DNA of 64,000 bases from Squalus acanthias. Taxonomy: Eukaryota. Each line of letters opens with the position of its first letter. Within the stretch, counting starts at the first letter, position 1. Made by a program: the position numbers and the translations under genes. The notes under the pieces were generated by a model. That model saw only the letters and a program-made list of their open reading frames with translations, searched no databases and was not told the origin of the DNA. This document shows positions 10,293-61,021 of this stretch, piece by piece. The stretch covers positions 39,682,001-39,746,000 of the forward strand of contig CM059432.1 of assembly GCA_030390025.1 (NCBI GenBank), written 5' to 3'.

Positions 10293-11957
10293 TGTAAGGG
10301 ATTCTGACCCTGCGTGTCTCGCAGCCTGTGAGATTCACGCAGCTCTGTGCAGCCTGTATGTCAGTGCGGGTCTAGGCCTTGTTGCCTGTTCTGGTCTCCA
10401 GCCAGTCTGGGAACACTAGACACACCTGTGAGTGGTTCGAATCACTCTCCCTTACGGTTCTAGACACTGGACTTAGATGCGAGAGCAGTAATGGAGATGA
10501 AACTCATGTAGACTTGGTTTGAATGGTACGAAATGGAAAATCTTTATTGCATGATACTTAAGATTATGAAATACATGTCATAAGCACAGATTAATGACAG
10601 TACAATCTTACAAACAGTTATATAGTCGATCTTAGGGAAACGAGGAACGAACGGCACAAAGTAAATAGGGGCACACATTACAAATATCCTTAATCCTTAA
10701 ACCCTCCCCTATCAATATCTATCCTAAACTAGATTCGTAGGATTTCGAGACTCATGCTCACCACTCGTGATAACTCGGAGAAATTCCGAATAGCTGATCG
10801 GATGTTTTTCACCGCAGCACCCACGTGTCGGTCAGGAGATCTCCTGGTCCCACTTGTTTACTTGCTTCTGCTGCTCCGGCTAGCAGGCTGGAACGTCTGC
10901 TGTGATGAAGATCTATATTGGTTGGTTTAACAGGTACTCTTCGAGCACAGTTGTCGATATCGTCGATACGATATGTTTCCTTGCAAGTTCGAAGAAGTCT
11001 TCCTGGCGAGGAAAACTTGGCTAATCGACCTACAGGCGCGGTCGGGATTTACTGACCGTGGCGATGGATATGGTCTTCCTCTCTTCTCATCTCATCTCAT
11101 CTCATCTCTTCTCGGGCCTTTTGGTTCCGATACCGGTTACCAATATAGGTCTTCGTTACGCGACACGAGGTAGATCCGAACGGATCAGAAAGTTCAACAG
11201 TCTTTTCAGAAGAGGCAACAGGCAAGCAGGAGCGAGCCCAACTACGAGTACACAGGAGCAGCCACGAGGTTACGAATCGATCGGATAAGAGCACAGGAGC
11301 AGCCACGATGATAAGAGCAGCAAGAGAGAGAATGGACGGTTTGGAGCCTGCAATTATAGTGCAAAATCTTCCGTTTCCCGCCCAACTATAATGTCCATTC
11401 TTTTGTTTAGGGTTTGGCGCTCAAATGTCTTGTATGGGTGATCTCCGTTCTTAATGGGTTTCGGGGCTACTCGTAAATGTCTGAGTACCTGTTAATATTT
11501 CTCCCATTGTTAAATCGGTCGGTGTTCTCCCTGGAGGGGTTTGGGGCTTCCAAGTGTCCTGTATAACTACCTGCTAACGGCTCTCTCATCGTAGAGTCGT
11601 TGGGATTTTACATATTAATGTCTTTTGGATGGGCCCTTGATTACTCGGTACAATGGCTTTCCTTTGTACCTGGGAGACCGATTTCAGTATCTATGTGTAT
11701 ACTGCAAACCCATAATGTCTCGTGTATTATCTTCACTGGCTGAATCTTAATCGATCTTGCACAAATGTTTATTGGAACGCCATCTTGTCTGCCTGTTGAA
11801 AAGTCTAGAATGTTCTGTCACGAGGTGCGGCGGCCATTTTACAGGCTGCTTGTGTCCACTTTAAACCTGCCAGCATTCTACTGAAATAAAAGCTGTTTGA
11901 ACGAAACTCTGTGTTTTCTCCTTATTAATAAAATCGCGATATATTGCGAATTCTACA
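10293..11957 (-). mobile_element. Solo LTR of the same family as the provirus at 47621-61021 (diverged variant)
   Basis: TGTA...TACA termini and a 4-bp TSD GAGC (10289-10292 and 11958-11961). Colinear with the proviral LTRs along its length, with no internal sequence. Confidence 0.95.
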
Positions 11958-28901: not shown

Positions 28902-29794
28902 GGGGTAAAAATTCAGTTGGTTGCACCTCCCGTTAGCGCCTTAAGAGGGCGCTAATGGGGCGCAAAGCCGCTAACGCCCGGGCGCAGCGATGTTTGCGCC
29001 GCTCGGGAACTTAACTAGACATTGTGCGGCGGCGCTAAACTTTACCGCTGCGACCACCTGCGCGCGCAGATTGTGACGTCATTCCATGGTGCAACGCCCT
29101 TGTGGCGCCCCGGAGCGGAAATTGAGTGGCGCCCCCTGCCTTACCGTCTGACGCTAGCAACGACAGGTTGAGGGGAGCGTTCTGCAGTCATGAAGGGAAA
29201 GGGGGAGCGCTATTTAAAGGTGACTGCTTCCTGCCTTTTATTGTTGGTGCCATTTTTGAACTATGCATTCTGAGAGAGAGAGGGAGAGACTTCTGGAGAG
29301 ATTCAACGTTGTGTGAAGGAGTTTTGGGTACTGAGCAGCACTTTGCAGGTTCATTTTGATCTGCCATTCCTTGTATCGATTTAGCAGAGACTGTGGGAGC
29401 TGCACTCTGAGCTCTTTGCCTGGCACTCTCCATTGTTCTTTCCAGCACATTTGATGTGCAAGTCTCTCCAGGCCGAGATTCAAGGCTGCAATGAACAGGA
29501 TGTGGATGGAAAGCAAGATTAACCATCCCCTTTAAGAACTGGCCCGTGCCATTGTGTGTGTGTTCCATTGCTGACTGACATTACATGAGCTTCGCCAGCG
29601 CTCTGAGTTAGCGCCTCACTCCTTGGCCTTTGCGCCTTAAGACAGGTGTGCAGCGCCTGATTTAGCGCTCCACTCACCTCCCGGGGCGGTAAAAGTGAAG
29701 TTTCCAGTCAGTGGCGATAATTAGCGCCAGGCGCTAATATTTGCGTCCAGACGATATTTGCGCCCCAAATGGGGCGCGACCTAATTTTTCCCCC
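28902..29794 (+). mobile_element. Harbinger-type MITE, same family as 15869-16746
   Basis: TIRs ggggtaaaaattcag / ctaatttttccccc and TSD TAT. Colinear with 15869-16746. Confidence 0.9.
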
Positions 29795-29805
29795 TATGAC
29801 TCTAT

Positions 29806-30698
29806 GGGGGAAAAATTCAGTATCGCCCCGTTTAGGGCGCAATTATCGGCCGGGCGAAAAGATTAGCGCCTGGCGCTAATTATCGCCTCCGACTGCAAAC
29901 TTGACTTTTATCGCCCCTGGAGGTGATTGGAGCGCTAAATCAGGTGCTACACATCTGTCTTAAGGCGCAAAGGCCGATGAGCGAGGCGCTAACTCAGAGC
30001 GCTGGCGAAGCTCATGTGATGTCAGTCAGCAATGGAACACAGACACAATGGCACCGGCCAGTTCTTAAAGGGGAGGGTTGATCTTGCTTTCCATCCACAT
30101 CCTGCTCATTGCAGCCTTGAATCTCGGCCTGGAGAGACCTGTACATCAAATCTGCTGGAAAGTACAATGGAGAGAACCAGGGAAAGAGCTCAGAGTGCAG
30201 CCCTCACAGTCTGTTCTAAATCGATACAAGGAAGGGCAAATCAAAATGAACCTGCAAAGTGCTGCTCAGTACCCAAAACTCCTTAACACAGCATTGAATC
30301 TCTCCAGAAGTCTCTCTCGCTCTCTCTCAGAATGCGTGGTTCAAAAATGTCACCAACAAAAAAAGGCAGGAAGTGTTCGCCTTTAAATAGCGCTCCCCCA
30401 GTCCCTTCCTGACTGCAAAACGCTCCCCTCAGCCTGTCGTTGCTAGCGGCAGGCGGTAAGGCAGGGGGCGCCACTCAATATCCGCTCCGGGGCGCTACCG
30501 GGGCGTTGCTCACTCGACTGACGTCACGGTCTGCCGGCGCAGGAGATCGTGGCGGTAGTGTTTAGCGCCGCCACAAAATGTCTAGTTAATTTCACGCGCA
30601 GCGCAAACATCGCCGCGCCCGGGCGCTAGTTGCTTTGCGCCCCATTAGTGCCCTCTTAAGGCGCTAACGGGAGGCGCAACTAACTGAATTTTTCCCCC
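29806..30698 (-). mobile_element. Harbinger-type MITE, same family, inverted orientation
   Basis: TIRs gggggaaaaattcag / ctgaatttttccccc and TSD TAT. Reverse complement of 15869-16746. Confidence 0.9.
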
Positions 30699-31821
30699 TA
30701 TGACTCTATGAAGACATTTCAACATTATTGTTTATATCATCAATGTTGTATCGAGATCATTAATCATGGATATCTTTATAATTGGGAGAGAGGATACGAT
30801 CACTCTATCGAAATAGATTTTGGTTTAATCAGGCATGTTTCTGTCTCTTGTTTTCCTTTCGAAGAGGACAGTTTCACCAACTTTTTAATCAGCTGCTGAA
30901 ATTAATCACAGCAGAAGGTGGCGCTGTGTGTAAGAAAGAAAATAGGAGGAATAAAGTAGCTCATTCCAAAAAGTAGAGAAGAGGAAGTTAACCAAGGAAG
31001 TTAATCTAGCTCAGAGCCCAAAATGGGAGGCAGATACTGCAACATAGAGTACGCCTGACAGCAGGAGGACAGAAGGGATGGTGGGAAGTAAAAATTAAAA
31101 GGGGTAATTTTTCCGACTTTGTATTCCCGACAGGTGAATCTCCGCGCTGGCACAAGGAAACATATGCAGGGCTAGAAGGAAAGAGCAGGGGAGTGGGACT
31201 AATTGGATAGCTTTTTCAAAGAGCTGGCACAGCCACAATGGGCTGAAAAGCCTGCTTCTGTACTGTATGATTTTACGATTCTATGAACGTCGGAAAAATA
31301 CCCTGAAATTGAGTATATATGGAGTCATTTAAATTAATAGCCACAGGCTACCCGCCGGGAACATGGTCAGAAAGTTACACCTAAAGGGAGCATATAAGGT
31401 GTAATTTAAATTAATAGTTGAAGAATCGTGCGTTGTGCACCCAAATTTCTAATGTGCACTCCCAGCGGGTGAGCCTCCTCACGAGAGCACAAAGTGGTAA
31501 AATTACTCTTAGAACCTGATACACCAATTGCACAATTGGTACATCAACTTGTACTAATACATAGTGAAGATCAGAGTGAAAATCTAGTGCATCTGTACCA
31601 TTGTGTAGCAGCAAAACTGCAGCTATGGTAGAACCAAATCATAAAACTAGTAAAAAAAAGAATGATGAGGGTTGAGTAAGGAAAAACAAACTGATGAAGA
31701 AGCAAAAGTGAGAAAGGGCAGTTAGGTGAAACAGAACTGGTAAAATGTTGAATGAGTGAAGAAGTAGCTATGATTCATATGCCTGGACTTTCTCTTTCAG
31801 CAGTAATCCTGCCAGAAACTG

Positions 31822-32760
31822 TGGTCAGACTGGCTTTGTGCCCACACGTGCCTCCAATGGTCAGACTGGCTTTGTGCCCACACGTGCCTCCAATGGTCAG
31901 ACTGGCTTTGTGCCCGCACGTGCCTCCAATGGTCAGACTGGCTTTGTGCCTGCACGTGCCTCCAATGGTCAGACGGGCTTTGTGCCCACACATGCCTCCA
32001 ATGGTCAGACGGGCTTTGTGCCCGCACGTGCCTCCAATGGTCAGACTGGCTTTGTGCCCGCACGTGCCTCCAATGGTCAGACTGGCTTTGTGCCCACACG
32101 TGCCTCCAATGGTCAGACGGGCTTTGTGCCTGCACGTGCCTCCAATGGTCAGACGGGCTTTGTGCCCACACGTGCCTCCAATGGTCAGACGGGCTTTGTG
32201 CCCACACGTGCCTCCAATGATCAGACTGGCTTTGTGCCCACACTTGGCTCCAATGGTCAGACGGGCTTTGTGCCCACACGTGCCTCCAATGGTCAGACTG
32301 GCTTTGTGCCTGCATATGGCTCCAATGATCAGACGGGCTTTGTGCCCGCATATGGCTCCAATGGTCAGACTGGCTTTGTGCCCACACGTGCCTCCAATGG
32401 TCAGACGGGCTTTGTGCCTGCATATGGCTCCAATGATCAGACAGGCTTTGTGCCTGCACGTGCCTCCAATGGTCAGACGGGCTTTGTGCCCACACGTGCC
32501 TCCAATGGTCAGACGGGCTTTGTGCCCACACGTGCCTCCAATGATCAGACTGGCTTTGTGCCCACACTTGGCTCCAATGGTCAGACGGGCTTTGTGCCCA
32601 CACGTGCCTCCAATGGTCAGACTGGCTTTGTGCCCACACTTGGCTCCAATGGTCAGACTGGCTTTGTGCCCACACGTGCCTCCAATGGTCAGACGGGCTT
32701 TGTGCCCACACGTGCCTCCAATGATCAGACTGGCTTTGTGCCCGCACATGGCTCCCAATG
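31822..32760. repeat. 36-bp minisatellite, about 26 copies (tggtcagactggctttgtgcccacacgtgcctccaa)
   Basis: Directly visible tandem array with a few recurring variant positions. Confidence 0.97.
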
Positions 32761-34207
32761 CTGACCCAGATGGACCTTCATAGGTGCTAATTTAAAAATT
32801 GCTGGGTAGGCTCCTAGCAGGATTTCCAATGGAGCCAGAAACCCTGTCTCCAGAAGTGGAAGGAAAGTCACTGCTGTAGCAGTAGAGTGCATCTGGCAGT
32901 CTACAAGTTGTTGAAGTTGTAAACATTTTTTAATTTGATGCAGTAACAAGTGCAATCAATTGCCCTCACAGGCTATTTAAAATGTTAAACCCCACGCCAC
33001 CTTCTTAGCAATGCTGTACGCTGGGACACAACAGCCCAGCGTTCCTACGGTATTGATGAAGGAAAATACATTAGAACATCGGATGACATATTTCCTTCGT
33101 TTGCATTGCACTTCAATGCAGTCACCCAAATATGGGCAGGCAAATTCACTGCCCCTCCATCAAGTCCAGAGGAAAATTCTAGAAGTGACAGGAACCGGGA
33201 TTTTTCTTTAGTACTGAAGAGCAATGAATATGCCCACCCATATTTGGGCGCGTATGTTTAATTAGAACATTGTTTAAGGATTATGAGGAGCATATGTCTT
33301 ATTTGGAGATTTTTCTAACTGGTGCATGGTGATTAGATTTGACAGGCTGAAAGGAATTACAAGGCAATGTGGAGTTTCTTTAAACAGTGGTCATAAGTTG
33401 AGCGATTGCTGATCATAGCAGGATGGCAGTAGAGGTATCACAATTGGCTGGGAAAGGAACAATCAGCCAAGGTTCCCATGCCTGCTTGGACACCTGCTGG
33501 GAAGTCCATATGTGTTCATCAGTTAAGGACAGGATTAGATATGACTGTTATTGTCCCAGCAGTCAAATAGACTGCTGACACTCACTGTCACACATGGCTA
33601 CTTTGGTGAGATACCACAGGGCATTTGGCATCCATGGCACCGTATCCCAAAAGATGACAATGCCGATAGGACCAGAACATAATTTGGCTATTTTAACCCT
33701 GACAAGGGTTGATATTTATTTTAATGACAGAATTGACATTGAGATAAACTATAGTTAACAGCTACACTAATGTTTGCGGGCATAACAACATTTTCAACAC
33801 ATTAAATTAAGCATATATAAGGCTATTTTTGTTGTTTGAAGTTCTTTACAAATTCCCTTGAAGCACAAGACTGAATATCATGACTAATTTCCTTTGTCCT
33901 AGAAATTGGATCTGGCCCCAAAACGGGTGGTGTCAGGGCACACCACTATTTGGCCGTGCCCATTCAAAGTGATCCAGGCAGCATGCAAAATTCATGCTGA
34001 CTGCTCATTTACATGATTGTAGTGCTGATCTCAGCACTAAACACGCTGCTCATTGGCTTATCACTCAACAGCTGGGCCAATATCGGGTGCTGTCTAATGG
34101 CCAGTAATGTTTGGCCTAGTCTTTCTCCACTACTTAAAGGGGAGGTGCTTTGATGCAGCAGCACTTCATTGGAGTTGGAGCTGGAATTGGAATTGCGGTT
34201 GGAACAC

Positions 34208-47620: not shown

Positions 47621-49244
47621 TGTAAGGGTTTACGTGCGTGTCTCTCAGCCTGTGAGATTCACGCGGCTCTGTGCAGCCTGTATGTCAGTGCGGGTTTAGG
47701 CCTTGTTGCCTGTTCTGGTCTCCAGCCAGTCTGGGAGCACTAGACACACCTGTGAGTGGTTCGAATCACTCGCCCTTACGGTTCTAGACACTGGACTTAG
47801 ATGCGAGAGCAGTAATGGAGATGAAACTCATGTAGACTCGGGTGAATGGTACGAAATGGAAAATCTTTATTGCATAATATTTAAGATTACGAAATACATG
47901 TCACAAGCACAGATTAATGACAGTACAATCTTACACGCAGTTATGTAACTAATTCTAGGGAAACGAGGAACGAACGACACACCGTAAATGGGGGCACACA
48001 TTACAATTATCCTTAATACTTAAACCCTCCCCTATCAATATCTGTCCTAGCTAGATTCGTAGGATTCGAGACTCATGCTCACCACTCGTGATAACTCGGA
48101 GAAATTCCGAATAGCTGATCGGATGTTTTTCACCGCAGCACCCACGTGTCGATCAGGGGGTCTCCTGGCCCCACTTGTTTACTTGCTTCTGCTCCGGCTA
48201 GCAGGCTGGAACGTCTGTTGTTATGAAGATCTGTGTTTGTGGGTTTCACGTACCAGCCAAGATGGGTTTCACAGACCAGTCAATACTTCGAAAGAAGAGT
48301 CTTCCGGGGTCCGTTCTTTAAAGTTCAAAGAAGTCTTCCTGGCAAGGAAAAATGTCTATTCGACCTACAGGCGCGGTCGGGGCTTACTGACCGTGGCGAT
48401 AAGTATGGTCTTCGTCTCTTCTCATCTCTTCTCGGGCCTTTGGTTCCGATGCCGGTTACCAACACAGGTCTTCGTGACACGACACGAGGTAGATCCGAAC
48501 GGATCACAAAGTTCAACAGTCTTTTAAAAGAGACACCAGGCAAGCAGGAACAAGACGGCGAGTCAAGAACACAGGAGCAGCCACGAGGATGAAGAGTCAA
48601 TCGGATAAGAGAAAGATGGACGGTTTGGGGCTTGCAATTATAGTGCAAAAATCTTCCGTTTCCCGCCCAACCTTAATGTCTTTTCTTTTGTTTGGGTTTG
48701 GCGCTCAAATGTCTTGTATAGGTGATCTCCGTTTTTAATGGGTTTCGGGGCTACTCGTAAATGTCTGAGTACCTGTTAATATTTCTCCCATTGTTTAATC
48801 GGTCGGTGTTCTCCCTGGAGGGGTTTTGGGGCCTCCAAGTGTTTTCTGTAACTACCCGCTAACGGCTCTCTCATCGTAGAGTCGTTGGGATTTTACATAT
48901 TAATGTCTTTGGATGGGCCCTTGATTACTTGGTACAATAGCCTTTATTCGTACCCGGGAGACCGATTTCAGTATCTATGTGTATACTGCAAACCCATGAT
49001 GTCTCGTGTATTATCTTCAATGTGCTGAATCTTAATCGATCTTGCACAAATGTTTATTGGAACGCCATCTTGTCTGCCTGTCGAAAAGTCTAGAATGTTC
49101 CGCCACGAGGTGCGGCGGCCATTTTACAAGCTGCTTGTGTCCACTTTGAAACCTGACAGCATTCCGCTGAAATAAAAGCTGTTTGAACGAAACTCTGTGT
49201 TTTTCTCTTTATTAATAAAATCGCGATATATTGCGAATTCTACA
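47621..49244 (-). repeat. 3' LTR (1624 bp)
   Basis: TGTA...TACA ends. Minus-strand AATAAA at 47866-47871. Confidence 0.97.
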
Positions 49245-49256
49245 GTCCCTCCTGTT
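49245..49256 (-). other. Polypurine tract (AACAGGAGGGAC) abutting the 3' LTR
   Basis: Purine-rich run immediately upstream of the 3' LTR TG on the minus strand. Confidence 0.7.
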
Positions 49257-49692
49257 GATGCGAATAACTCCGCTTATCGTATCAAAAATAGTGGTGAGCA
49301 ATATTATCTCGATTTTCTCCGAATCCAGAAAATTTAATCCCATAACTTAAACTACCTAGGGTCTTTGTGTCGTCCTTATTTCCCAAGAAAATTACATTTT
49401 ATAGCACCGTAGGCATTATTTGCCTTTAAACTTACACCACTTGTTTTCCTTCCCGGCGTAATCAGGCCGATGCCTCTCGTATCACCTGTACATTCATCTT
49501 TTATTCAGGGAAAGGAAAAACAAAACCCAAAACCAAACAATCATTTTTTTAACTGTAACACCATCACCAAAATAATCAACACCAACTCTTAAAACATGTC
49601 GAGTTCCAAACGTATTTACAGTCTTTGAAAATCATGATCGAGTACCAACTTCCGCGGCGCACGTGGCGAGCGGGAGTGACGCCATTTTCCGA

Positions 49693-51975
49693 TTACACGG
49701 TGCTTTCATCGTGCACGCGCACGTAACGTTCTCGCCACTCACCCGTGTTTTCATGCTTGGTGAGGCGTTTGTCTCTTTTACAATGTACGACCAATAGGTA
49801 CACTACAATAAAAACTTGGCATATTACTAAAATGTGGGAGGCTATTCTGATCCATGAAGGCACTTCAATATTGGTGAACAGATTCCACCACGGTGGAATG
49901 ACTATGTCCAGAATGTCTGTCCCTATCTCGACAGTTTTCTGTTCTAATGTATAAAAATGTTTCTGTGACACCGTGACGGCTTTTAAAAGCTTGGTGAGGT
50001 GTTCAGGGAGAGGGGGAATGAGGTATCCGAAATGCGCGACGAATCGCTGCAAGTCGGTGAAATTCTCTTTTACTGTTAGATGAACAGTGGATGGTTCAGG
50101 GATTGGGACAATTCGCTGTTGTGCTACTTGAACTTCCGCCCTGGGTTTGAAACAGAAACTGCTGTCACTCACCGGACACCGGCTACGGTTTCCATGCTGG
50201 TAGTGTTGCGCTGCAGTGGTAACACAATATGTTCCACCCCCGATGTATGCTACCTGCGGAGGCACATGATCTTGTGCCATTGCCTCCATGGTGCAATTCA
50301 TGGACTTGGCGCCAGCCGTTCTGAACCCGCACTGTGGTGTTAAAAAGGCATTCAAGTGCTGGGGACACAGTATTATGTGTGCTCCCCTGCCACGACAACC
50401 AGAGAGATCGGTACCTGTCATCGTTTGCTCCCAGCGGATGACGTAAGGTGGAACCGCTGCATAGCGAATGTGGGCTCCCCCCTGAATGACACCAATGTTC
50501 TCTACCCGATACACCGGGGCGGGCTTTGCTGTGTCGCCCAAAACCGGCATACGTAAAACTATACCCATAATGGTATGGTTTGATCGTCCACAGGGACTGG
50601 GTATGCTTCTGAAGCTAGCCTGAGCTGGCACGGGCTTAATGCGTTCTGAAAAGGGTGGAGCGCCCGCAGGTGTTTGTTACTTATCCAGGACGGGACCAAA
50701 CCTTGTTTTAAATCTTCCAAATTACTGCGGCCCTCGCCCAGTAACCACGCCCCGTAAAGCACGCACACCTCGTTCTGCGCAGCTTGATCGGATGCATTCC
50801 GATCTTCCCTAATCAGGGCATTTACCGTCTTTGCATGTTTCTCTAACTCTGCTATAATTTCCTTTAAATGGAGAGTCATGGCTTGGTCCTCGTGTAAACC
50901 CGACCCTACCACTTTATTCTCATCTGTTAGAATGTCTTTTAATTGTGTCTTTAAACCATTAATCTGGGTCTGCAGCTCCACACTGTCTAGAGCGTTGACC
51001 ACAGATGTACCCGTGTTAAAAGCAGTATTAAAAGCAGTGAACGCGTCGTTCACTACACCCCTTCTTTGCCTCCCTACTTGATCCAAAACTTCATGTGGTG
51101 CGGTGTACAAACTTGTTTTATCAATTTCCGCGAAATCGAATTCGTAAAATTGTCTGAACATCTTGGTCAACAGGACCTGATACAACTGTTCTGTCTTTTT
51201 GGGGCACCACTCTGGTAACCGCACCTCGGTGAGATTTAAAATCACCGAGGCCACCGCGTAATGTACCCCCTGGAATAGTATCTGGTCTGTGGGGACCAGT
51301 ACCAAACCATTCCCGGGTCCCTTACTAGTTTTAGGGCACCCTTCCTCTTCAGCTAGAACCACCGGAATCGTGGGCGGGGCTTTGATCCCACCTCATCCCC
51401 TGTCCGTTATCCTGCCATTGATTAATGAAGAATATGGATATGCCTTTGGGGCAAGGGTACTTTGACCCCCACATGCATACATAAATTCCCTCATCCGGTT
51501 CCCACCATTTGTCCCAACAGACTCTCACATGTCCGTTTGTCCCCGTAATTGTCCGATGGGTATTATTACCCAGTCGTTCCCACTCGACCGAAGAGTTCCT
51601 CATAGTTTTGCTCAGCTTTCGCAGCCACCACCATCGGCTCAATGGGACATTCCCACTACAAGTCAAACAAATCCGTTTGCCGACGGTGACGCTGATCCTG
51701 GGTGCGATGATCCTTACTTTGGGGCACATTAAAGAAGTCTCTTGGTAGGCAAACCCCGATGTGCTAGAATACTCCGTCGAGTTCGTTCCCAGCCATCCTG
51801 GCCACCTTCCCTTGTGGAAATAGGTGGTGTTCTCCTCAGCCTCCCGTCTTCCGGTCTCATCCACCGCGATGGGGGCCGTGTCCCCGGAGCATCCAAACAC
51901 CACGACATCCTTGGTGCGGCCTCGATAGGCCAATCCACATCCGATTGCCGCGAGCAATACTAGAATTCGTTCCAT
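49693..51975 (-). pseudogene. env: env-like gene (about 760 codons, in three frames): signal peptide, Ig-like domain, furin site, F-like fusion subunit, TM anchor
   Basis: ATG at 51975 (aggATGG) begins MERILVLLAAIGCGLA. RQRR|GVVNDAFTAF is followed by a heptad repeat, a Cys-rich region and the TM segment IASHILVICQVFIVVYLLVV. Frame breaks occur near 51375 and 50590. Confidence 0.85.
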
Positions 51976-52278
51976 CCTTCCTTGGTTCCTGTGATCAGAT
52001 AGAATGAGGTAGCCAGCCTCGCAAGAGTCTCTGGCTTTTGTGAAGGGTGAGCGGGTCCCCTGACCTCGCCTCACGTAAACTTCAACGTTCGCTGAATAAA
52101 CTTTAACTAGACCTAATCTCTAAAGCTCCCATCATTTTACCGTTTTCTGTTAAAATTAAACTACAAACTTAACCTTATTTAAAACTACAAACTTATAACC
52201 TTATTTAAAACTATAAACTTGGAAACCTATCCTAAACTTATTACTGTACAGCGCCGCCCGTTCTCAGGGCGGCCCCCT

Positions 52279-55200
52279 TTAAATTCTGAGAAGGCTGCTG
52301 CGAGCTCTTCCCGACGGTGGGAGGGCTCTGACCTTTTCCTCTGATCTGCCGCAGCCTGTTGCTGCACTGACCCCTTCCTCTGATCTGCCGCAGCCTGTTG
52401 CTGCACTGACCCCTTCCTCTGATCTGCCGCAGCCTGTTGCTGCTGCGATGGGGCCGGGCTGTATCTGGGCTGCCTTAACCTTGAGTCTACGCCTTGGGAC
52501 AGTCTGGGGCCATACCCACATCTTCCTGGGCTGGGGTTCTCTACTTGACCTACGGGGAGTTGTCAGGGGCAGGGATCCCATGACCGACGGACCGGGTTCC
52601 GAGACTTCCATCGGGACGACCTGTGGTTCCACCACAGTCGCTGGCTCCGCCTCCGCTGACTCCGCCTCCCTAACCTCGGGACTTGCAGTTTGTGGCTCCG
52701 CCCTGCTCGGCCCAGCAGGCGGCCCTTCACTTGCGATCCCTGCCTCCCCCGAGGGCGGGACGTTCAAAGCGGGCGGCTCGGGCTCGGAGGTTCTCACCGT
52801 CACTCCCTGTGTTCCCACAGCAGCTGGCTCCGCCTCCCCTAGCTCCTCCCTCCTGGGTTCGGGACCTGCAGCTTGTGGCTCCGCCCTGTGCGGATCTCCA
52901 TCTGCAGTCCGTGTCCTCCCTATACCTAAAATGGGGACGCCCCTTACGTTCCGCAAAACCCACTCGCCTTCATCACTATCCTCATCTGACTCCCATCCCC
53001 ACAAAAATGCTTCATGATCTTCCAGGATGTCCCCTCCCCTGATGCAAGCTGCTTTGCCTGCCTGTTTGCCTTGTGGTCCTACCTGGGGCTGCGCTTCCCC
53101 ACTCGCGGGGTTTACCCCTGTGGTTTTCCCTTGCGCACCTGGCTTGTACAGTTTGCACTGGTTTACATGGAACCACTTAGTGCGCCGAGGTACCTTTACG
53201 GCGTATACCATGGGACTCGCCTTATCTACAATGTTGTAGGGTCCCATATACAGTGGTTCCAGACTCCCTACTCTGGCGTAGTTTCTGACCATGACCTGGT
53301 CTCCTACTTCCCACTCCCGCGTTTTGCGGGGTTCCAGCAACAGGCGATTGCCCTGATGCTGCCTTCCCATGTTCCCAGCCGCCTGCTCATAAACCTGCTT
53401 CAGGCGCTCCAAGAGGGTCTGGGCGAACTTGTCCCTGCTTATCTCTTGGAGCTGACCCTCAGTGAGCACCGGCGCTAGCACATGGGTGGGGGTTCGCATG
53501 AGCCTCCCAGTCATCACCTCGTGCGGGGAATACCCCGTACTTTTCGACTGACTGGCCCGGACCCCCATGAGGACTAAAGGCAGAACTTCCGCCCATTTTT
53601 GGGGCGAGTTCCTAGTCTCTTTCCTCAATTTCTCCTTCAGGGTCCGGTTCATGCGTTCAACAATCCCGGATGACTGGGGATTGTGTGCTACGTGCCACTT
53701 CCCTTCAATGCCCAAAAGCATGAGGGTGTTCTGCATCACCTGGCCGGTGAAATGACTCCCTTGGTCTGACTCCACAAAACGGGGGAGTCCCCACCGCGAG
53801 AACACTTCCCGGACCAAGATTTTTGCAGTACCCAGTGCCGTAGCTGTTCGACAGGGGAAGGCTTCCACCCACTTGGAGAACACATCCACCAAGACGAGGC
53901 AGTATTTATAGCCTCCCTGGGTGGTGGGCAGGGGCCCTATATAGTCGATCTGTATCGACTGCCATGGTCCCTCTACCCTTCTTACGTGTCCCATGGGCAC
54001 TTTCCTTTTCTGGGGGTCTGGGTTGTTTGCAGCGCACACAAGACAGTTTGCACAGAACTCGCGGACTTGTTCCCTGAGCCCTGGCCACCATCCCGCTTGC
54101 TCTACCCGTTGCCAGGTAACCTCGGGCCCGGGGTGCCCTGCCCCTGGTCCCTCGTGAGCCAACTGGAGGAATTCCCTCCTGTGCTGCTGCGGCACAACCC
54201 ACTGCTCCTCGCGGAACAGCATGCCTTCCTTAACTGAGAGGGTTGCCGTACTGTACGGACCCTCTACCTGCTTCCCCTCAGCAATGGTTTTTAGGACTGC
54301 TTTTAGGGCGGGATCCTGGGTTTGGACGGTCTTAAGGTCTAGGGGCAATGCTACCCTGGGGTTCCCGGGATTCCCGTCCCTGCCTTGGATCGCTGCCATG
54401 GGTCTGGTCCCATAGGGGTCCCAGAAAATGCCGTTGCGGGCACCTTCCCTGGCTAGCGCATCCGCCTGTTGGTTGCCCTCCCCACGGGGCTCTGTGGAGG
54501 AGTGAGCTTTCACCTTATGGATGAAAATCTCCCCTTCCTCCCCTGCTGCTGCTGCTAGGATCTTTTCCAGCAAGGGCTTCACCGTTAAAGGTCGCCCGTC
54601 CGCGGAGGTGTATCCACGGCGGGACCAAATGGCCAGGTATTCCGTACACGAATTGCATGTGAACATACTGTCCGAGCAAATCGTGTATGGGGTTGGGAAA
54701 ATGTCTGGGTGGGTAACAACGTACACCACAGCAGACAGCTCAGCCTGCTGCGCGCTCATGGTGCTAGGGAGCTTGATCGCCAGGGCAAGGTTTGCCGCAG
54801 GGTCATAAACTCCACACCCTGTGAGTCGTTCGCCAGCAGATACTGTGCTAGAACCATCAACATAAATCTCGCGCCCAGTGGGATGTATCCCGGCCCGCAA
54901 ACCTATGTTGACGTCCCACACCCCTTCCACCGAACATCGGTGGGCTGTACCGGGGTATACCAAATTGGCCGCAAGCCTGGGCTCGCAAAGACCTTTTACT
55001 CTAAGATCCATCTGGGAAAGAAGAAGGGTCCAGCGCGCAATACGCACGCCGCTTACGGTCCCATCTTTAATCCTCCCATCTAGAAGCATCTTAGTTGGTG
55101 TGTGATGGGTGAGGAGAGTGATGGGAGAGAGCCCTGTGAAGATCGCTGATCTTTTCACAGCCCAATGCGTGGCTAAAAGGTGCCTTTCGCAATTGGAGAA

Positions 55201-56817
55201 ACTTCTCTCCACATCCGTTAACACTCTGGACGAATAGACAACCGGCCTCAGCTTGCCGTGACGCTCTTGGAGCAGCACAGCGCTCAAGCTGTCCCCGCTG
55301 GCAGCTACCTCCAGGAAAAACTCCTTCCCCCCATCTATGGCCCCTAAAGCTGGCGCGGTCTGCAGATCCCTTTTTAACTTCTCGAAGGCTGCTTGGCAGC
55401 CCTCGTCCCAAGACCACTCCACTCCCTTATGGAGGAGTCGGAGGAGCGGCGCTGCTGTGGCCGCATAGTCTTCGATAAAATCCCTGCAGTAACCGGTCAG
55501 TCCCAAGAAGGACCTCACACCCCTTATGTTGTTGGGAATCGGTAACTCTTGCACCGACTCCCTCCTAGCCTTATCTATGGCTCTTTCCCCAGCGCGAATG
55601 GTCAGTCCCAGGAATTTTACTTCCTGCTGACCGATACGTGCTTTCTTAGAATTTATTTTAAAACCCTTTCTCGCTAGCAGCTCCAATAACTCGTCCAGCA
55701 GTGGTCCATGCTCCTCCCTTGAATCCGTAAATAGGAGCAAATCATCCACGTACTGCACTATCTGATTGGGCTGACTAAACTCCTTTAAACTTCCTGCCAT
55801 ACACTGATGGAAAATACTGGGGCTATTGTGGAAACCCTGTGGCAGACAGTTCCATGTGTACTGTTGTCCTTTGAAAGTAAAGGCAAACTTGTACTGGTCC
55901 TCTCGCCGCAGCGGGATAGACCAAAAACCGTTCGAGATATCCAGCACCGTGAACGTGGTCGCGGACGCTGGGATACTCCCTATTAGGTCAGCAACTGCTG
56001 CTACCGTGGGCGCGCAGGCGGGAATGTTACTGTTAAGGACTCTGTAGTCCACCGTGGCCCTCCACGAATTATCCGGCTTCCTAACCGGCCATAATGGGGA
56101 GTTCACGTGTGTGGCTATCGGCCTCAACACGCCCTGCTGCACCAAGGAGGACATTGCTGTCTCCATATCGGGTTCTGCTTCTTTGGGGAAGTTATACTGT
56201 TTTTGGGGCCGGGTCATGGGGTCCCCATCTACGCTGACTTCAAACCCGGTAACCCTCCCACAATCATGCTTGTGGGTTGCAAACGCATGCATATTATCTG
56301 ACACGTACGTTTGCATGTCCGTTGGGACATCTGCGACCATAAGCCCGAGGTCGTAGCCTCCGGATGGCTGCATGGTACACAGGACCCCCGTTTCTTCCTC
56401 CCCCGGAATCACTACTACTTCGCCTTTTTCACTCTTAGCCCCCCAGAGACAGTGATTTCTGAGGTCCACGAGGATCCCGTGCCCTGATAGGAGATCGGAC
56501 CCAAGGATACCTCTTCCACCCCCCTCCTGCCATTCCATCAGTATGCACTTCCACTTGAGGTGAAGTGCTCCCAAACGAATGGATAGCGGAAGGGAGAACG
56601 CGCCAGCCTGTTCTTTTCCCGTGAACCCCGTTAATGTGAATGGGACCTTGGTAGATAGCGGCGAGTCAAAAGGGCTATCTGTATGAATTATGGTGCAAGA
56701 AGCTCCCGTGTCCAACAAATAACTACCCTTCTGTTTCTCTACCTCCATCTCCACCAAAGGTCGCTTCCACGCATCATAGCTGAGCGGACACAGGTAGACG
56801 GGCTGCGCGGGCTCTAG
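52279..56817 (-). CDS. pol: pol polyprotein, uninterrupted: protease, RT, degenerate RNase H tether, RNase H, integrase, long C-terminal tail
   Basis: LLDTGA; LDISNGFW, LPQG, YVDD; EVAAS...ERHLLA...THH; IYVDGS...AQQAEL...SDS...KVKAH...GNQQAD; HHCC, IDYIGP, SDQGSHF, GIVERMNRTLK, GPY. Confidence 0.97.
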   Translation of the reverse strand, partial: LEPAQPVYLCPLSYDAWKRPLVEMEVEKQKGSYLLDTGASCTIIHTDSPFDSPLSTKVPFTLTGFTGKEQAGAFSLPLSIRLGALHLKWKCILMEWQEGGGRGILGSDLLSGHGILVDLRNHCLWGAKSEKGEVVVIPGEEETGVLCTMQPSGGYDLGLMVADVPTDMQTYVSDNMHAFATHKHDCGRVTGFEVSVDGDPMTRPQKQYNFPKEAEPDMETAMSSLVQQGVLRPIATHVNSPLWPVRKPDNSWRATVDYRVLNSNIPACAPTVAAVADLIGSIPASATTFTVLDISNGFWSIPLRREDQYKFAFTFKGQQYTWNCLPQGFHNSPSIFHQCMAGSLKEFSQPNQIVQYVDDLLLFTDSREEHGPLLDELLELLARKGFKINSKKARIGQQEVKFLGLTIRAGERAIDKARRESVQELPIPNNIRGVRSFLGLTGYCRDFIEDYAATAAPLLRLLHKGVEWSWDEGCQAAFEKLKRDLQTAPALGAIDGGKEFFLEVAASGDSLSAVLLQERHGKLRPVVYSSRVLTDVERSFSNCERHLLATHWAVKRSAIFTGLSPITLLTHHTPTKMLLDGRIKDGTVSGVRIARWTLLLSQMDLRVKGLCEPRLAANLVYPGTAHRCSVEGVWDVNIGLRAGIHPTGREIYVDGSSTVSAGERLTGCGVYDPAANLALAIKLPSTMSAQQAELSAVVYVVTHPDIFPTPYTICSDSMFTCNSCTEYLAIWSRRGYTSADGRPLTVKPLLEKILAAAAGEEGEIFIHKVKAHSSTEPRGEGNQQADALAREGARNGIFWDPYGTRPMAAIQGRDGNPGNPRVALPLDLKTVQTQDPALKAVLKTIAEGKQVEGPYSTATLSVKEGMLFREEQWVVPQQHRREFLQLAHEGPGAGHPGPEVTWQRVEQAGWWPGLREQVREFCANCLVCAANNPDPQKRKVPMGHVRRVEGPWQSIQIDYIGPLPTTQGGYKYCLVLVDVFSKWVEAFPCRTATALGTAKILVREVFSRWGLPRFVESDQGSHFTGQVMQNTLMLLGIEGKWHVAHNPQSSGIVERMNRTLKEKLRKETRNSPQKWAEVLPLVLMGVRASQSKSTGYSPHEVMTGRLMRTPTHVLAPVLTEGQLQEISRDKFAQTLLERLKQVYEQAAGNMGRQHQGNRLLLEPRKTREWEVGDQVMVRNYARVGSLEPLYMGPYNIVDKASPMVYAVKVPRRTKWFHVNQCKLYKPGAQGKTTGVNPASGEAQPQVGPQGKQAGKAACIRGGDILEDHEAFLWGWESDEDSDEGEWVLRNVRGVPILGIGRTRTADGDPHRAEPQAAGPEPRREELGEAEPAAVGTQGVTVRTSEPEPPALNVPPSGEAGIASEGPPAGPSRAEPQTASPEVREAESAEAEPATVVEPQVVPMEVSEPGPSVMGSLPLTTPRRSSREPQPRKMWVWPQTVPRRRLKVKAAQIQPGPIAAATGCGRSEEGVSAATGCGRSEEGVSAATGCGRSEEKVRALPPSGRARSSLLRI

Positions 56818-58533
56818 TCATTGGGTACTATTAGACGGTCCTGCGGCACCTACGGGGCCGGTAGCAACCGCCACCTTTCCATGTGCACTCATGAAGTTGC
56901 GCATGGCTCCCAACACTGATTCGAGTTCGTTGGAAGGGGTGGGTGCACTAGTTTCCCTAGCAGGGACAGGCGTCTGGGCTCGGGCTGCGGGAATTTTATC
57001 CCTGGAATCCTTCCAAGGGTTCCTGCAGTTCTTGCGCCAGTGCCCTGTCTTCCCACACCCGTAACAAGCATTACTTGCCTGCGGGGCGCGATTACCCTCC
57101 TGATGCCACTCCCTTTGATACGGGGCTGCGGGTCGTACCTCATGTACTTTTCCCTTAAGGGGACGTGTTCCCATACCCCTTATATTGCGATATCCTAACG
57201 TGAGTCGATTCAATACCGACTCTTCCGTAATGTTGGGGTCATTGGGATCAAACCATGCTTTTGCCTACTCTCTGATGGCTGGTAAACTGTTGGCTACTAT
57301 GCACCTAAGCCAATGATTTAAACCGGCGCCGTCCATATCGTCGCGCTCTAGCGTACCTAGACAGCTGCGCTGATATACTGGCCACAGCCTGTCGGCAAAA
57401 ACCTTCGGGGGTTCTCCCTCCATCTGCACTGTCTGTCCCACTCTAGCAAACGGACCTTCATCGTCCGCCCCCAACACTTCTAGGACCTCATTTTTCAATG
57501 CCTCATAAGTCTTGGTTCCCCTCTTGCTCTCGCCCGAGAGACACTGAAGGATTGAACTGCCTAACGAAAACAACAGCATTTTTGCTGTTTCCCCATCATC
57601 GCAGCCGTTAATGGCTGCGGTTTGCTCAACTTCTCTGAAATGTACGGAAGGGTCGTCTAACTCGGTCAGCTTCCGTACGTGATTTATCATAACTCTCAGC
57701 TGGTGTGAGCTGTGAGGCAACACAAGCTGGCCGAGGAGATCCCCTGGTTCCTCCCCACCGTTTCTGTTTGGGCCCCTTTTTATACCCGTAACTGGATACA
57801 ACGGTCCCTTTTCCACTTCTTTCTCAGTGGGCTCTTTCGTTTCTTCCACTACTTCCTCCCTTACCCAGGTTACCGAATAGCTGGGTGGCGCGGAGGGCGC
57901 AGTGGCTAATACTTCCTCTGCTTTACTTGGTGGGGATTTCTGAAACTCCTCTTTTACTAGCGGCTGGTGTGCTGACGGACTGATAAGGCACATCATGCCG
58001 TGCGCTTTGTTCACGGCCTTTTTGAGGTGTTCTATCTCTTTTTGGCAGGCGCTATGATCGGCCCCCTGAAATTTATCCTCAAGGGCCAGCTTATATGCCG
58101 CCCTAACCCCTGTTAAGCTTTCTTCCTGGGTTCTTATCTGGGCAGCTGGGCGGGCACATCGTTCCTTTAGTCTGCCCTCACTTAACTTTGCCTCAGTGAC
58201 CTGGCACTCGAGGTAATCTATCCTTGTTTTATGGTGACTGGTGATTTCCTGGCGTTCTTGGTGCAGCGCACTTAAATTCCTAATGAGCAATTCCCCTCCA
58301 GAGACCTTCTCATCCATTTCTCCCTCTAAATGACTGATTCGAGCTGTTAGCGCTGTAATGACCTGGTTTGAAATCTGGACCTGCCTTTTGTAACACATTA
58401 GCCAGACTGCTTTCTCGATTGTCTTTTTATGTTCCTTACTATCTGTCCACCTTTCGGCTGCCTCTAGTGGACTCTTATCCGCTAACAATTCACTTATCCA
58501 TTTCTTAGTTAGATTAACCTTTCCGAACACATA

Positions 58534-59287
58534 GGCCCAGAAATTGATCCGGCTGCGCGAGAGTACGCACAGTGTACACTCACGCAGCCAGACTTCAATT
58601 GCCGGTTTTCAGCATGCACTGCGCATGCACTGAAAACCGGCAATTGATCTTTCGAAAAGGGGGCGGGTCCTCAGTGCACCGCGTGCGCGCTACAGGCTGC
58701 GCGCACGCAGTGCACTTCATCGCTTGCGCACGCAGGTAAGTATTGAAGAATCTGGAAAAGAAAAAAGGAAGCGCAGGAGACTCTTTTAACCAGGTAAGTA
58801 CATAATTAAGTAGTATTTAGAATTTTTTTTTACAGGTAAATCTTTAGTAGCGACTTTAAAGACAGGTAAGTTTATTTTTATAACATTTTAAAAGATTTAA
58901 AATTTTTTCAAAAATTTATTTTTTTGTTTAAAAAGGTTAATTTATTTAATTACACTTATTTTAATTATGTGATGGGTTTTTTTTTTAATTTAATGGAGGT
59001 TTAGCTCTTCTTTTGGGGGCTTGTTGTATTCCTAGTTTTCACAGCAGTTCAATGGCCGCTGTGAATTCTATGAATGAGAGCTTGGTGTGCTGCCATTGGC
59101 TGTAACTCAGTCACGTGATCCCACAGTACGCTCGAACTAACTTCGCACTGTGGGATCACGATGCACTCGCAGCTGATGGCTGGAACATGAAGTTCCAGCG
59201 AGCTGGGACTGAAAAAGCCAACGCGCAGTGAGACATCGCGGGAAGGGCTTACCCTCGCACGAACCCTCACACTGCAATTTCTGGGCC
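58534..59287. mobile_element. 754-bp MITE inserted in gag codon 32
   Basis: Perfect 13-bp TIR GGCCCAGAAATTG and TSD ATA (58531-58533 and 59288-59290). Excision restores the gag frame. Confidence 0.92.
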
Positions 59288-59364
59288 ATAATCTGCTATC
59301 TTTTCCTGCATAACATTTCGTACAGTCACACCAAAGTCTAACACACTACCCTCTCGCTGCCAGT

Positions 59365-59382
59365 GTCCTGCCGCGGTCGCCA
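59365..59382 (-). other. Primer-binding site TGGCGACCGCGGCAGGAC, complementary to the tRNA-Arg(TCG) 3' end
   Basis: The + strand reads GTCCTGCCGCGGTCGCCA, the 3' 18 nt of vertebrate tRNA-Arg(TCG) as I recall it. It lies 5 nt from the LTR. Confidence 0.85.
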
Positions 59383-59387
59383 TTTTC

Positions 59388-61021
59388 TGTAAGGGTTTAC
59401 GTGCGTGTCTCTCAGCCTGTGAGATTCGCGTGGCTCTGTGCAGCCTGTATGTCAGTGCGGGTTTAGGCCTTGTTGCCTGTTCTGGTCTCCAGCCAGTCTG
59501 GGAGCACTAGACACACCTGTGAGTGGTTCGAATCACTCGCCCTTACGGTTCTAGACACTGGACTTAGATGCGAGAGCAGTAATGGAGATGAAACTCATGT
59601 AGACTCGGTTGAATGGTACGAAATGGAAAATCTTTATTGCATAATATTTAAGATTACGAAATACATGTCATAAGCACAGATTAATGACAGTACAATCTTA
59701 CACGCAGTTATGTAACTAATTCTAGGGAAACGGGGAACGAACGACACACCGTAAATGGGGGCACACATTACAATTATCCTTAATACTTAAACCCTCCCCT
59801 ATCAATATCTGTCCTAGCTAGATTCGTAGGATTCGAGACTCATGCTCACCACTCGTGATAACTCGGAGAAATTCCGAATAGCTGATCGGATGTTTTTCAC
59901 CGCAGCATCCACGTGTCGATCAGGGGGTCTCCTGGCCCCACTTGTTTACTTGCTTCTGCTCCGGCTAGCAGGCTGGAACGTCTGTTGTTATGAAGATCTG
60001 TATTTGTGGGTTTCACGTACCAGCCAAGATGGGTTTCACAGACCAGTCAATACTTTGAAAGAAGAGTCTTCCGGGGTCCGTTCTTTAAAGTTCAAAGAAG
60101 TCTTCCTGGCAAGGAAAAATGTCTATTCGACCTACAGGCGCGGTCGGGGCTTACTGACCGTGGCGATAAGTATGGTCTTCGTCTCTTCTCATCTCATCTC
60201 ATCTCTTCTCGGGCCTTTGGTTCCGATGCCGGTTACCAACACAGGTCTTCGTGACACGACACGAGGTAGATCCGAACGGATCACAAAGTTCAACAGTCTT
60301 TTAAAAGAGACACCAGGCAAGCAGGAACAAGACGGCGAGTCAAGAACACAGGAGCAGCCACGAGGATGAAGAGTCAATCGGATAAGAGAAAGATGGACGG
60401 TTTGGGGCTTGCAATTATAGTGCAAAAATCTTCCGTTTCACGCCCAACCTTAATGTCTTTTCTTTTGTTTGGGTTTGGCGCTCAAATGTCTTGTATAGGT
60501 GATCTCCGTTTTTAATGGGTTTCGGGGCTACTCGTAAATGTCTGAGTACCTGTTAATATTTCTCCCATTGTTTAATCGGTCGGTGTTCTCCCTGGAGGGG
60601 TTTTGGGGCCTCCAAGTGTTTTCTGTAACTACCCGCTAACGGCTCTCTCATCGTAGAGTCGTTGGGATTTTACATATTAATGTCTTTGGATGGGCCCTTG
60701 ATTACTTGGTACAATAGCCTTTATTCGTACCCGGGAGACCGATTTCAGTATCTATGTGTATACTGCAAACCCATGATGTCCCGTGTATTATCTTCAATGT
60801 GCTGAATCTTAATCGATCTTGCACAAATGTTTATTGGAACGCCATCTTGTCTGCCTGTCGAAAAGTCTAGAATGTTCCGCCACGAGGTGCGGCGGCCATT
60901 TTACAGGCTGCTTGTGTCCACTTTGAAACCTGACAGCATTCCGCTGAAATAAAAGCTGTTTGAACGAAACTCTGTGTTTTTCTCTTTATTAATAAAATCG
61001 CGATATATTGCGAATTCTACA
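59388..61021 (-). repeat. 5' LTR (1634 bp)
   Basis: Matches 47621-49244 except for about 11 substitutions (counted by eye) and two extra ATCTC units. Confidence 0.97.
60410..60450 (-). promoter_or_regulatory. Candidate LTR core promoter (GC box, ETS-like CGGAAG, TATAAT)
   Basis: The minus strand reads gggcg(t/g)gaaacggaagatttttgcactataattgc. The motif order is conserved in all three LTR copies. Confidence 0.5.

Follow-up and report, generated by a model that had tools for sequence, protein, structure and literature searches.

UGA-CUAG at the gag-pol junction of a Squalus acanthias endogenous retrovirus: a probable readthrough signal with a candidate downstream stem-loop

How could an endogenous retrovirus (ERV) make Gag-Pol when its gag ends in a stop codon and its pol continues behind that codon in the same frame? 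The question is raised by a provirus in a window of 64,000 nt from Squalus acanthias (assembly GCA_030390025.1, contig CM059432.1, positions 39,682,001 to 39,746,000 of the forward strand); all positions below are those of this window. The provirus occupies 47621-61021 on the minus strand (13.4 kb) and has the order gag-pol-env between two long terminal repeats (LTRs), with a primer-binding site (PBS), a polypurine tract and a target-site duplication. Sequence comparison indicates that the UGA-CUAG junction of this element is real, inherited and in frame, and the family very probably made Gag-Pol by leaky termination at it.

The minus strand at 56829-56812 reads AGT ACC CAA TGA CTA GAG, followed by CCC. 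The features that meet at this junction are as follows.

56818..56820, minus strand: gag stop codon TGA, in frame with pol (sequence, frame, alignment)
56814..56817, minus strand: CTAG context 3' of the stop (+4 to +7), the type II UGA-CUA hexamer plus G (sequence; classification per PMC13517186)
56821..58533, minus strand: gag, with a coiled-coil N-terminal part, a capsid-like part, one CCHC knuckle at 57025-57066 (PF00098) and a premature stop at 57265-57267 (frames, Pfam, by-eye comparison with the Gag of the related locus L032)
52279..56817, minus strand: pol, 1512 codons, open, with protease (DTG codon at 56712), reverse transcriptase (RT), tether, RNase H, integrase and a long low-complexity tail (Pfam, frames)

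The TGA at 56820-56818 shares its frame with both the gag zinc knuckle and the downstream pol, in which 1512 codons follow without a stop (56817-52282). The first in-frame ATG after the stop is codon 24 (+73), 12 codons upstream of the catalytic Asp, while the Pfam retroviral protease match (E 6e-4) starts at codon 17, i.e., upstream of this ATG. An in-frame UGA in the context CAA-UGA-CUAG, as the preliminary description had it, was borne out by the minus-strand reading and the frames; its further statement, that pol continues in the gag frame with no ATG before the protease N-terminal region, agreed with the positions of the ATG and the Pfam match. Frameshifting was rejected: gag and pol share one frame, and each of the other two runs into a stop codon within 80 nt past the TGA. 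The heptamer TGACTAG occurs three times in the window, counting the two strands together, and once in the provirus, where the frequency of CTAG per position is 0.0032; CTA accounts for 15 of the 135 leucine codons of pol. AQP4 is among the vertebrate genes that carry the UGA-CUAG readthrough context.

We infer for this family that ribosomes stopping at the UGA would yield Gag, and that the few percent that instead decode the UGA with a near-cognate tRNA would continue in frame into protease, RT, RNase H and integrase to give Gag-Pol. The signal would be of the alphavirus kind (type II), with an intrinsically leaky UGA-CUAG context. A long predicted stem-loop, with its base 8 nt past the stop at the mRNA entry of the ribosome, would probably boost the readthrough, possibly several-fold if Sindbis virus (SINV) and Venezuelan equine encephalitis virus (VEEV) are a guide. 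The programmed opal readthrough proposed in the preliminary description is supported by a homologous stop in L032, by the absence of a listed variant in sister copies, by TGA-CTA in lokiretroviruses and by the predicted stem-loop at +12.

What is known of such contexts comes largely from a 2026 review (PMC13517186), of which the available part is cited here and below. It gives UGACUAG as active at a basal level without structure, with at least ~1.3% readthrough in human genes (the MDH1 and OPRL1 contexts are named), and structure as only conditionally required for UGACUA. It describes gag-pol readthrough as established for gammaretroviruses and predicted for epsilonretroviruses; verified cases are the gammaretroviral UAG-pseudoknots only, and the cis elements of epsilon and unclassified fish retroviruses are called unclear. 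The preliminary description had set the window junction against a readthrough of UAG in gamma- and epsilonretroviruses. This contrast was incomplete, as UGA junctions are already given for the swim bladder sarcoma virus of salmon (SSSV, UGAAGA), zebrafish ERV (ZFERV, UGACGA) and a cane-toad ERV (UGAAGU), none of them verified by experiment (PMC13517186), and for XtERV-S, with a TGA between gag and pol (PMC8278194, available part); the locus L042 reads TGA-AGA. These elements share with ours an in-frame UGA between gag and pol with predicted suppression, and UGA as a gag-pol stop type in fish and frog retroviruses is therefore not new. The part of the contrast that held is the CUA(G) context, which is not listed: none of the three hexamers is UGA-CUA, and the review names UGACUA for alphaviruses and Plautia stali intestine virus only, with lokiretroviruses unmentioned. 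In the accessible literature, including the available parts of PMC10435555, PMC12440569 and two preprints, we found no mention of a retrovirus that reads through UGA-CUA(G); subscription journals, Repbase and preprint supplements may mention it.

The closest functional likeness is to the alphavirus nsP3/nsP4 junction (SINV with UGA-CUA; VEEV with UGA-CGG and an extended stem-loop; PMC3159437 and PMC13517186, available parts). Shared are a long stem-loop beginning at +12 to +16, the polymerase downstream, the SINV hexamer itself and, in some alphavirus lineages, CGA sense variants such as that of the lokiretrovirus set Pfl described below. Stimulators begin at +12 in Moloney murine leukemia virus (MoMLV), VEEV and Colorado tick fever virus and at +16 in SINV (PMC13517186), and stem-loops raise alphavirus readthrough 3- to 14-fold (PMC3159437). 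On the other hand, the virus is unrelated, and the predicted stem of the window element, at 211 nt, exceeds those of 126 and 177 nt and is rod-like. We read the likeness as convergence, not as membership. The gammaretrovirus MoMLV shares the purpose of setting a Gag:Gag-Pol ratio, the frame layout and the 8-nt spacing before the structure; it differs in having UAG-G with a 50-nt H-type pseudoknot, and the window element falls outside the gamma/epsilon clade.

For the region downstream of the stop, the folding prediction gave one extended structure.

56599..56809, minus strand: predicted extended stem-loop, +12 to +222, ~210 nt (folding prediction)

In the model, the basal helix +12..+20 (56809-56801) pairs with +213..+222 (56608-56599) in two registers, the pairing probability being 0.97-1.0 for most of +12..+20. 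The predicted core +59..+177 is rod-like, a 3-bp extension to +7..+9 is possible, and the stop and +4/+5 are unpaired (probability 0.0). The segment +4..+230 folded with -88.8 kcal/mol (z -4.23); none of 200 shuffles was as stable, none of 400 synonymous resamplings folded as well, and among 20 pol tiles this segment ranked first, the runner-up reaching z -2.82. Folding of the downstream 150 nt, which the preliminary description had suggested, gave an unremarkable result (+4..+153, z -0.08), because a segment of that length cuts the stem and ~225 nt are needed. The structure was found only with longer segments: in a scan of segment sizes the signal became strong once ~200 nt were included, and segments of 40-90 nt near the stop reached z -1.72 at best. 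No Rfam family was significant (four chance-level matches). Since the MoMLV-type locus L035 gave a fold z of +0.9, such a statistic neither proves function nor is needed for it. Elsewhere in the provirus, a region inside RT (55500-55680, minus strand; z -5.9 at +1171) folds as strongly as the junction core, and 57630-57720 in gag and 53370 in integrase are further such places.

The same signal was observed in lokiretroviruses. We read the junctions by eye in 10 of the 24 sets of authors' consensus sequences in the available supplement of PMC7947760 (Wang and Han); some of the remaining 14 sets begin in pol (Aro, Ape, Lch) and others lie outside the count. An in-frame TGA-CTA was present in 7 of these 10 junctions, four times as TGA-CTAG, and CTA was present in all 10. 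The supplement holds at least 17 instances of TGACTAG, four of which (Ofa, Cne, Pyo, Sau) mark the boundary of gag and pol and share the protease frame; Dcl, Lro and Bsp have TGA-CTA-A, and Tfu has the ambiguous TGN-CTA-A. Three junctions read UGA-CUA-GGC, the OPRL1 context of PMC13517186. The accessible main text of PMC7947760 and the follow-up PMC9040795 contain no mention of readthrough, stop codon or frameshift. Lokiretroviruses also share with the window element the tether plus RNase H and a furin-type site in Env. They differ in that the Gag ends shown lack a CCHC knuckle, which the window Gag has, in other protease N-terminal motifs and, in that source, in having no report from cartilaginous fish; by eye, the Gag end and protease N-terminus of the window element are unlike the lokiretrovirus consensus, and it does not look like a lokiretrovirus. 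In the available supplement of PMC4422223, an epsilon-like elephant-shark ERV (CmiERV scaffold 324, lineage II) has CAA-TGA-CTC in frame before the protease.

The position of the window element was examined in two quick RT trees (120 and 39 rows), neither of which includes a lokiretrovirus row. Its RT groups with retroviruses, apart from Ty3/gypsy (SH-aLRT 100). A 14-row gamma/epsilon clade (support 99) excludes it, and it falls into an unresolved basal grade with L032, which sits in an open fork beside the group of the window element. These trees put the element outside gamma/epsilon and fit a place in the snakehead-retrovirus-like (SnRV-like) grade. The closest Pol protein was 83% identical, followed by frog and coelacanth gene models at 44-47%. 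The best locus match was L032 (10,688 nt), with 37% identity over protease-RT (E 4e-71). It shares with the window element a coiled-coil Gag with one CCHC knuckle and a similar PBS start; its Env gave non-significant BLASTP matches to the window Env (best E 0.019 and 2.6), the motif spacing being alike by eye only. Viral contigs queried with the window protein yielded no relatives, the exact junction pattern had no match, and genome contigs gave none; metagenome contigs gave 31 loci, none close (22-35% identity). One of the metagenomic loci, the Ty3/gypsy-type element L025, has a gag end TAA-CTAG (1891-1897) with pol in the same frame, i.e., a UAA version of the context, with 516 open codons before the TAA and 503 from it to YVDD.

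Of the SnRV-type relatives, which comprise L032 and, in PMC4422223, the lineage I CmiERV, L032 shares an in-frame stop at the homologous position; the lineage I junction itself was not found in the available supplement of that paper. The gag of L032 ends in CCA-TAG-GGC, a hexamer that fits SnRV per PMC13517186. Aligned from the stop, LC.L appears at codons 9-12 in both the window element and L032, so the two stops are positionally homologous, as UGA-CUAG (type II) vs UAG-GGC (type III-like); protein P0173 has C..Y D.W..PLV.

Sister copies, whose comparison the preliminary description had called for, were assessed in contigs of 4 of 23 public runs (four coded organisms) aligned to 56400-57500. 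All four runs had depth across the stop, and no variant fell at 56814-56823 among the best-supported 40 of 161 variant rows, in agreement with conservation of the heptamer. Among 19 of 95 loose contig ends, two unlike gag ends were joined to the junction in run X3, at 56821 and 56829, and contigs of X7, X11 and X13 matched from the junction side up to 56786 and then diverged; the region around the junction may thus be retained in divergent families. A protease query for longer fused proteins gave none, which is weak evidence, and of the 150 best matches of another query, 10 proteins were inspected and none had a zinc knuckle running into protease. Separately, in X3 two low-depth DNA contigs lack 339 nt across the junction (56666-57006) and one contig lacks 81 nt of gag, as expected of deleted copies.

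Several observations speak against our interpretation. The coelacanth gene model P0005 has Gln then Gly at the stop position and, by eye, an unchanged distance of 35 residues from there to the catalytic Asp; this Gln may be a decayed or lost stop. Among lokiretroviruses, Str (GGA) and Pfl (CGA) have a sense codon before CTA and fused open reading frames, so that in some relatives the stop appears to be absent or decayed (the CGA vs TGA of the consensus could be CpG decay). The consensus rows are also related to each other, so the 7 junctions are not 7 independent events, and a minority variant at the stop may lie among the other 121 of the 161 variant rows. As for the structure, the folded segment was picked after scanning, 19 of 303 provirus segments of 120 nt reached z <= -3, with +1171 tying with the core (z -5.92 vs -5.93), and the folds past the stops of L032 and L042 were weak (z -1.6 and -2.1), L032 thus differing from the window element in having no strong fold there.

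The structural points bear on a credible alternative, though not the one we favor, that readthrough would come from the UGA-CUAG context alone and the long fold would be incidental or serve another job (packaging, or protecting genomic RNA from nonsense-mediated decay). It agrees with the basal activity of UGACUAG cited above and with the equally strong folds elsewhere in the provirus; moreover, the core +59..+177, which supplies most of the fold signal, is remote from the ribosome. Against it stands the near-certain pairing predicted for the stem base at +12, where known stimulators start. Also, +1..+225 holds just one of the 40 listed variants, at 56631 (+190), a position unpaired in the fold; when gag is left out and 1 of 7 listed pol variants is counted, this deficit is weak (p 0.044, post hoc). 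Given readthrough, we lean slightly toward some role of the modeled stem-loop in it.

It is very unlikely that Pol was made separately in the style of foamy viruses, from a spliced mRNA or from the ATG at +73, with the TGA as an ordinary terminator. Such an in-frame ATG is present, and in the poorly resolved basal grade foamy virus is a near neighbor of the element. However, this ATG lies inside the Pfam protease match, so starting there would truncate the conserved protease N-terminus, and it is absent from L032, P0005 and P0173, whereas the residues upstream of it are kept. Separate expression would also leave the CTA past the stop unexplained, both here and in the 10 lokiretrovirus junctions.

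Equally improbable is a TGA that arose after insertion (e.g., by CpG decay of CGA) in a family with a single gag-pol reading frame. The window copy does carry other lesions, and Pfl, Str and P0005 have sense codons there. However, the LTRs differ by only 0.7%, and in L032, too, the aligned position is a stop. The premature gag stop served as an internal control: it was read otherwise in at least 99.8% of the depth in all four runs. A private change at the junction would appear in the same way, as a near-100% row, and none was listed at 56820 among the 40 best-supported rows. As for other recoding of the UGA, by selenocysteine insertion or by A-to-I editing in the long duplex that would give a Trp codon, the predicted duplex does adjoin the stop, but the model leaves the stop and +4/+5 unpaired, and neither a crude pattern like a selenocysteine insertion sequence within 600 nt nor a significant Rfam family was found, which makes it scarcely conceivable.

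Leaky termination at UGA-CUAG thus describes the family and not this locus: the window copy is defective and cannot make Gag-Pol, because it has the premature gag stop (57267-57265) and a 754-bp inverted-repeat insertion in the 5' part of gag, both upstream of the junction TGA and neither mentioned in the preliminary description. The remaining features of the provirus are listed below.

59388..61021, minus strand: 5' LTR (TG...CA), 1634 nt (LTR comparison)
59365..59382, minus strand: primer-binding site, 5 nt past the 5' LTR
58534..59287, no strand: 754-bp element with 13-bp terminal inverted repeats and TAT on both flanks, in the 5' part of gag
49693..52119, minus strand: env, three pieces in changing frames (52119-51349, 51392-50559, 50676-49693), with an RQRR furin-type site in the middle piece
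47621..49244, minus strand: 3' LTR, 98.7% identical to the 5' LTR (11 mismatches, one 10-nt gap)

The provirus is young and is flanked by a 4-bp target-site duplication, CAGC. The PBS is presumably of the tRNA-Arg type; within 59381-59387, five bases lie between the 5' LTR and the PBS, whose start overlaps with an ATG. The 754-bp element holds several internal hairpins and has no second copy within the window. In pol, the order is protease, RT, tether (RNase H-like), RNase H, integrase, with RT_RNaseH at 470-602 and RNase_H at 650-793 (Pfam); past the integrase, the 3' end (52282-53150, minus strand) codes for an acidic, proline-rich tail of ~290 residues with short tandem repeats.

The first env piece (51349-51975, minus strand) has a signal-peptide-like start and, by eye, an Ig-like cysteine/tryptophan pattern; the frog model P0002 also has a terminal Ig-like stretch, and the Env of L032 begins with a similar pattern. 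For the last env piece, the single homolog was a gene model from a sawshark, 64% identical over 48% of the piece, in keeping with a cartilaginous fish as host. An env piece was placed by Atlas near viral fusion glycoproteins (0.94, low recognition), with a structure model of pLDDT 35, and env had no Pfam match (including the paramyxovirus F family PF00523) and no PDB match. Elsewhere in the window we observed a solo LTR of a related subfamily (10293-11957, 86-92% identical, with its own 4-bp target-site duplication) and, at 28902-30698 and 31678-32913, an inverted repeat whose arms measure 893 nt (89%), together with a 36-bp tandem array.

New here are the candidate stem-loop at +12 and the unremarked TGA-CTA of lokiretroviruses; the combination of a UGA-CUA context with a stem-loop is not in the available part of the review PMC13517186. 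A tentative extension, on which we remain doubtful, is that UGA-CUA(G) readthrough is widespread and possibly the oldest route to Gag-Pol in deep-branching retroviruses (lokiretroviruses, SnRV-like shark ERVs and perhaps epsilon-like ones), in this element accompanied by an extended stem-loop of the alphavirus kind; lineages would switch at the same junction between UGA-CUA, UAG-GGC and sense codons, and the gammaretroviral UAG-pseudoknot would be later. A type II cassette in a retrovirus, together with the lokiretrovirus TGA-CTA, would add a third class of Gag-Pol signal. It would show convergence with alphaviruses, including the sense-codon variants, and would give a handle on the origin of Gag-Pol expression at the base of the retroviral tree. 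For annotation, such TGA codons would no longer be scored as disabling, and the set of ERVs regarded as intact would change.

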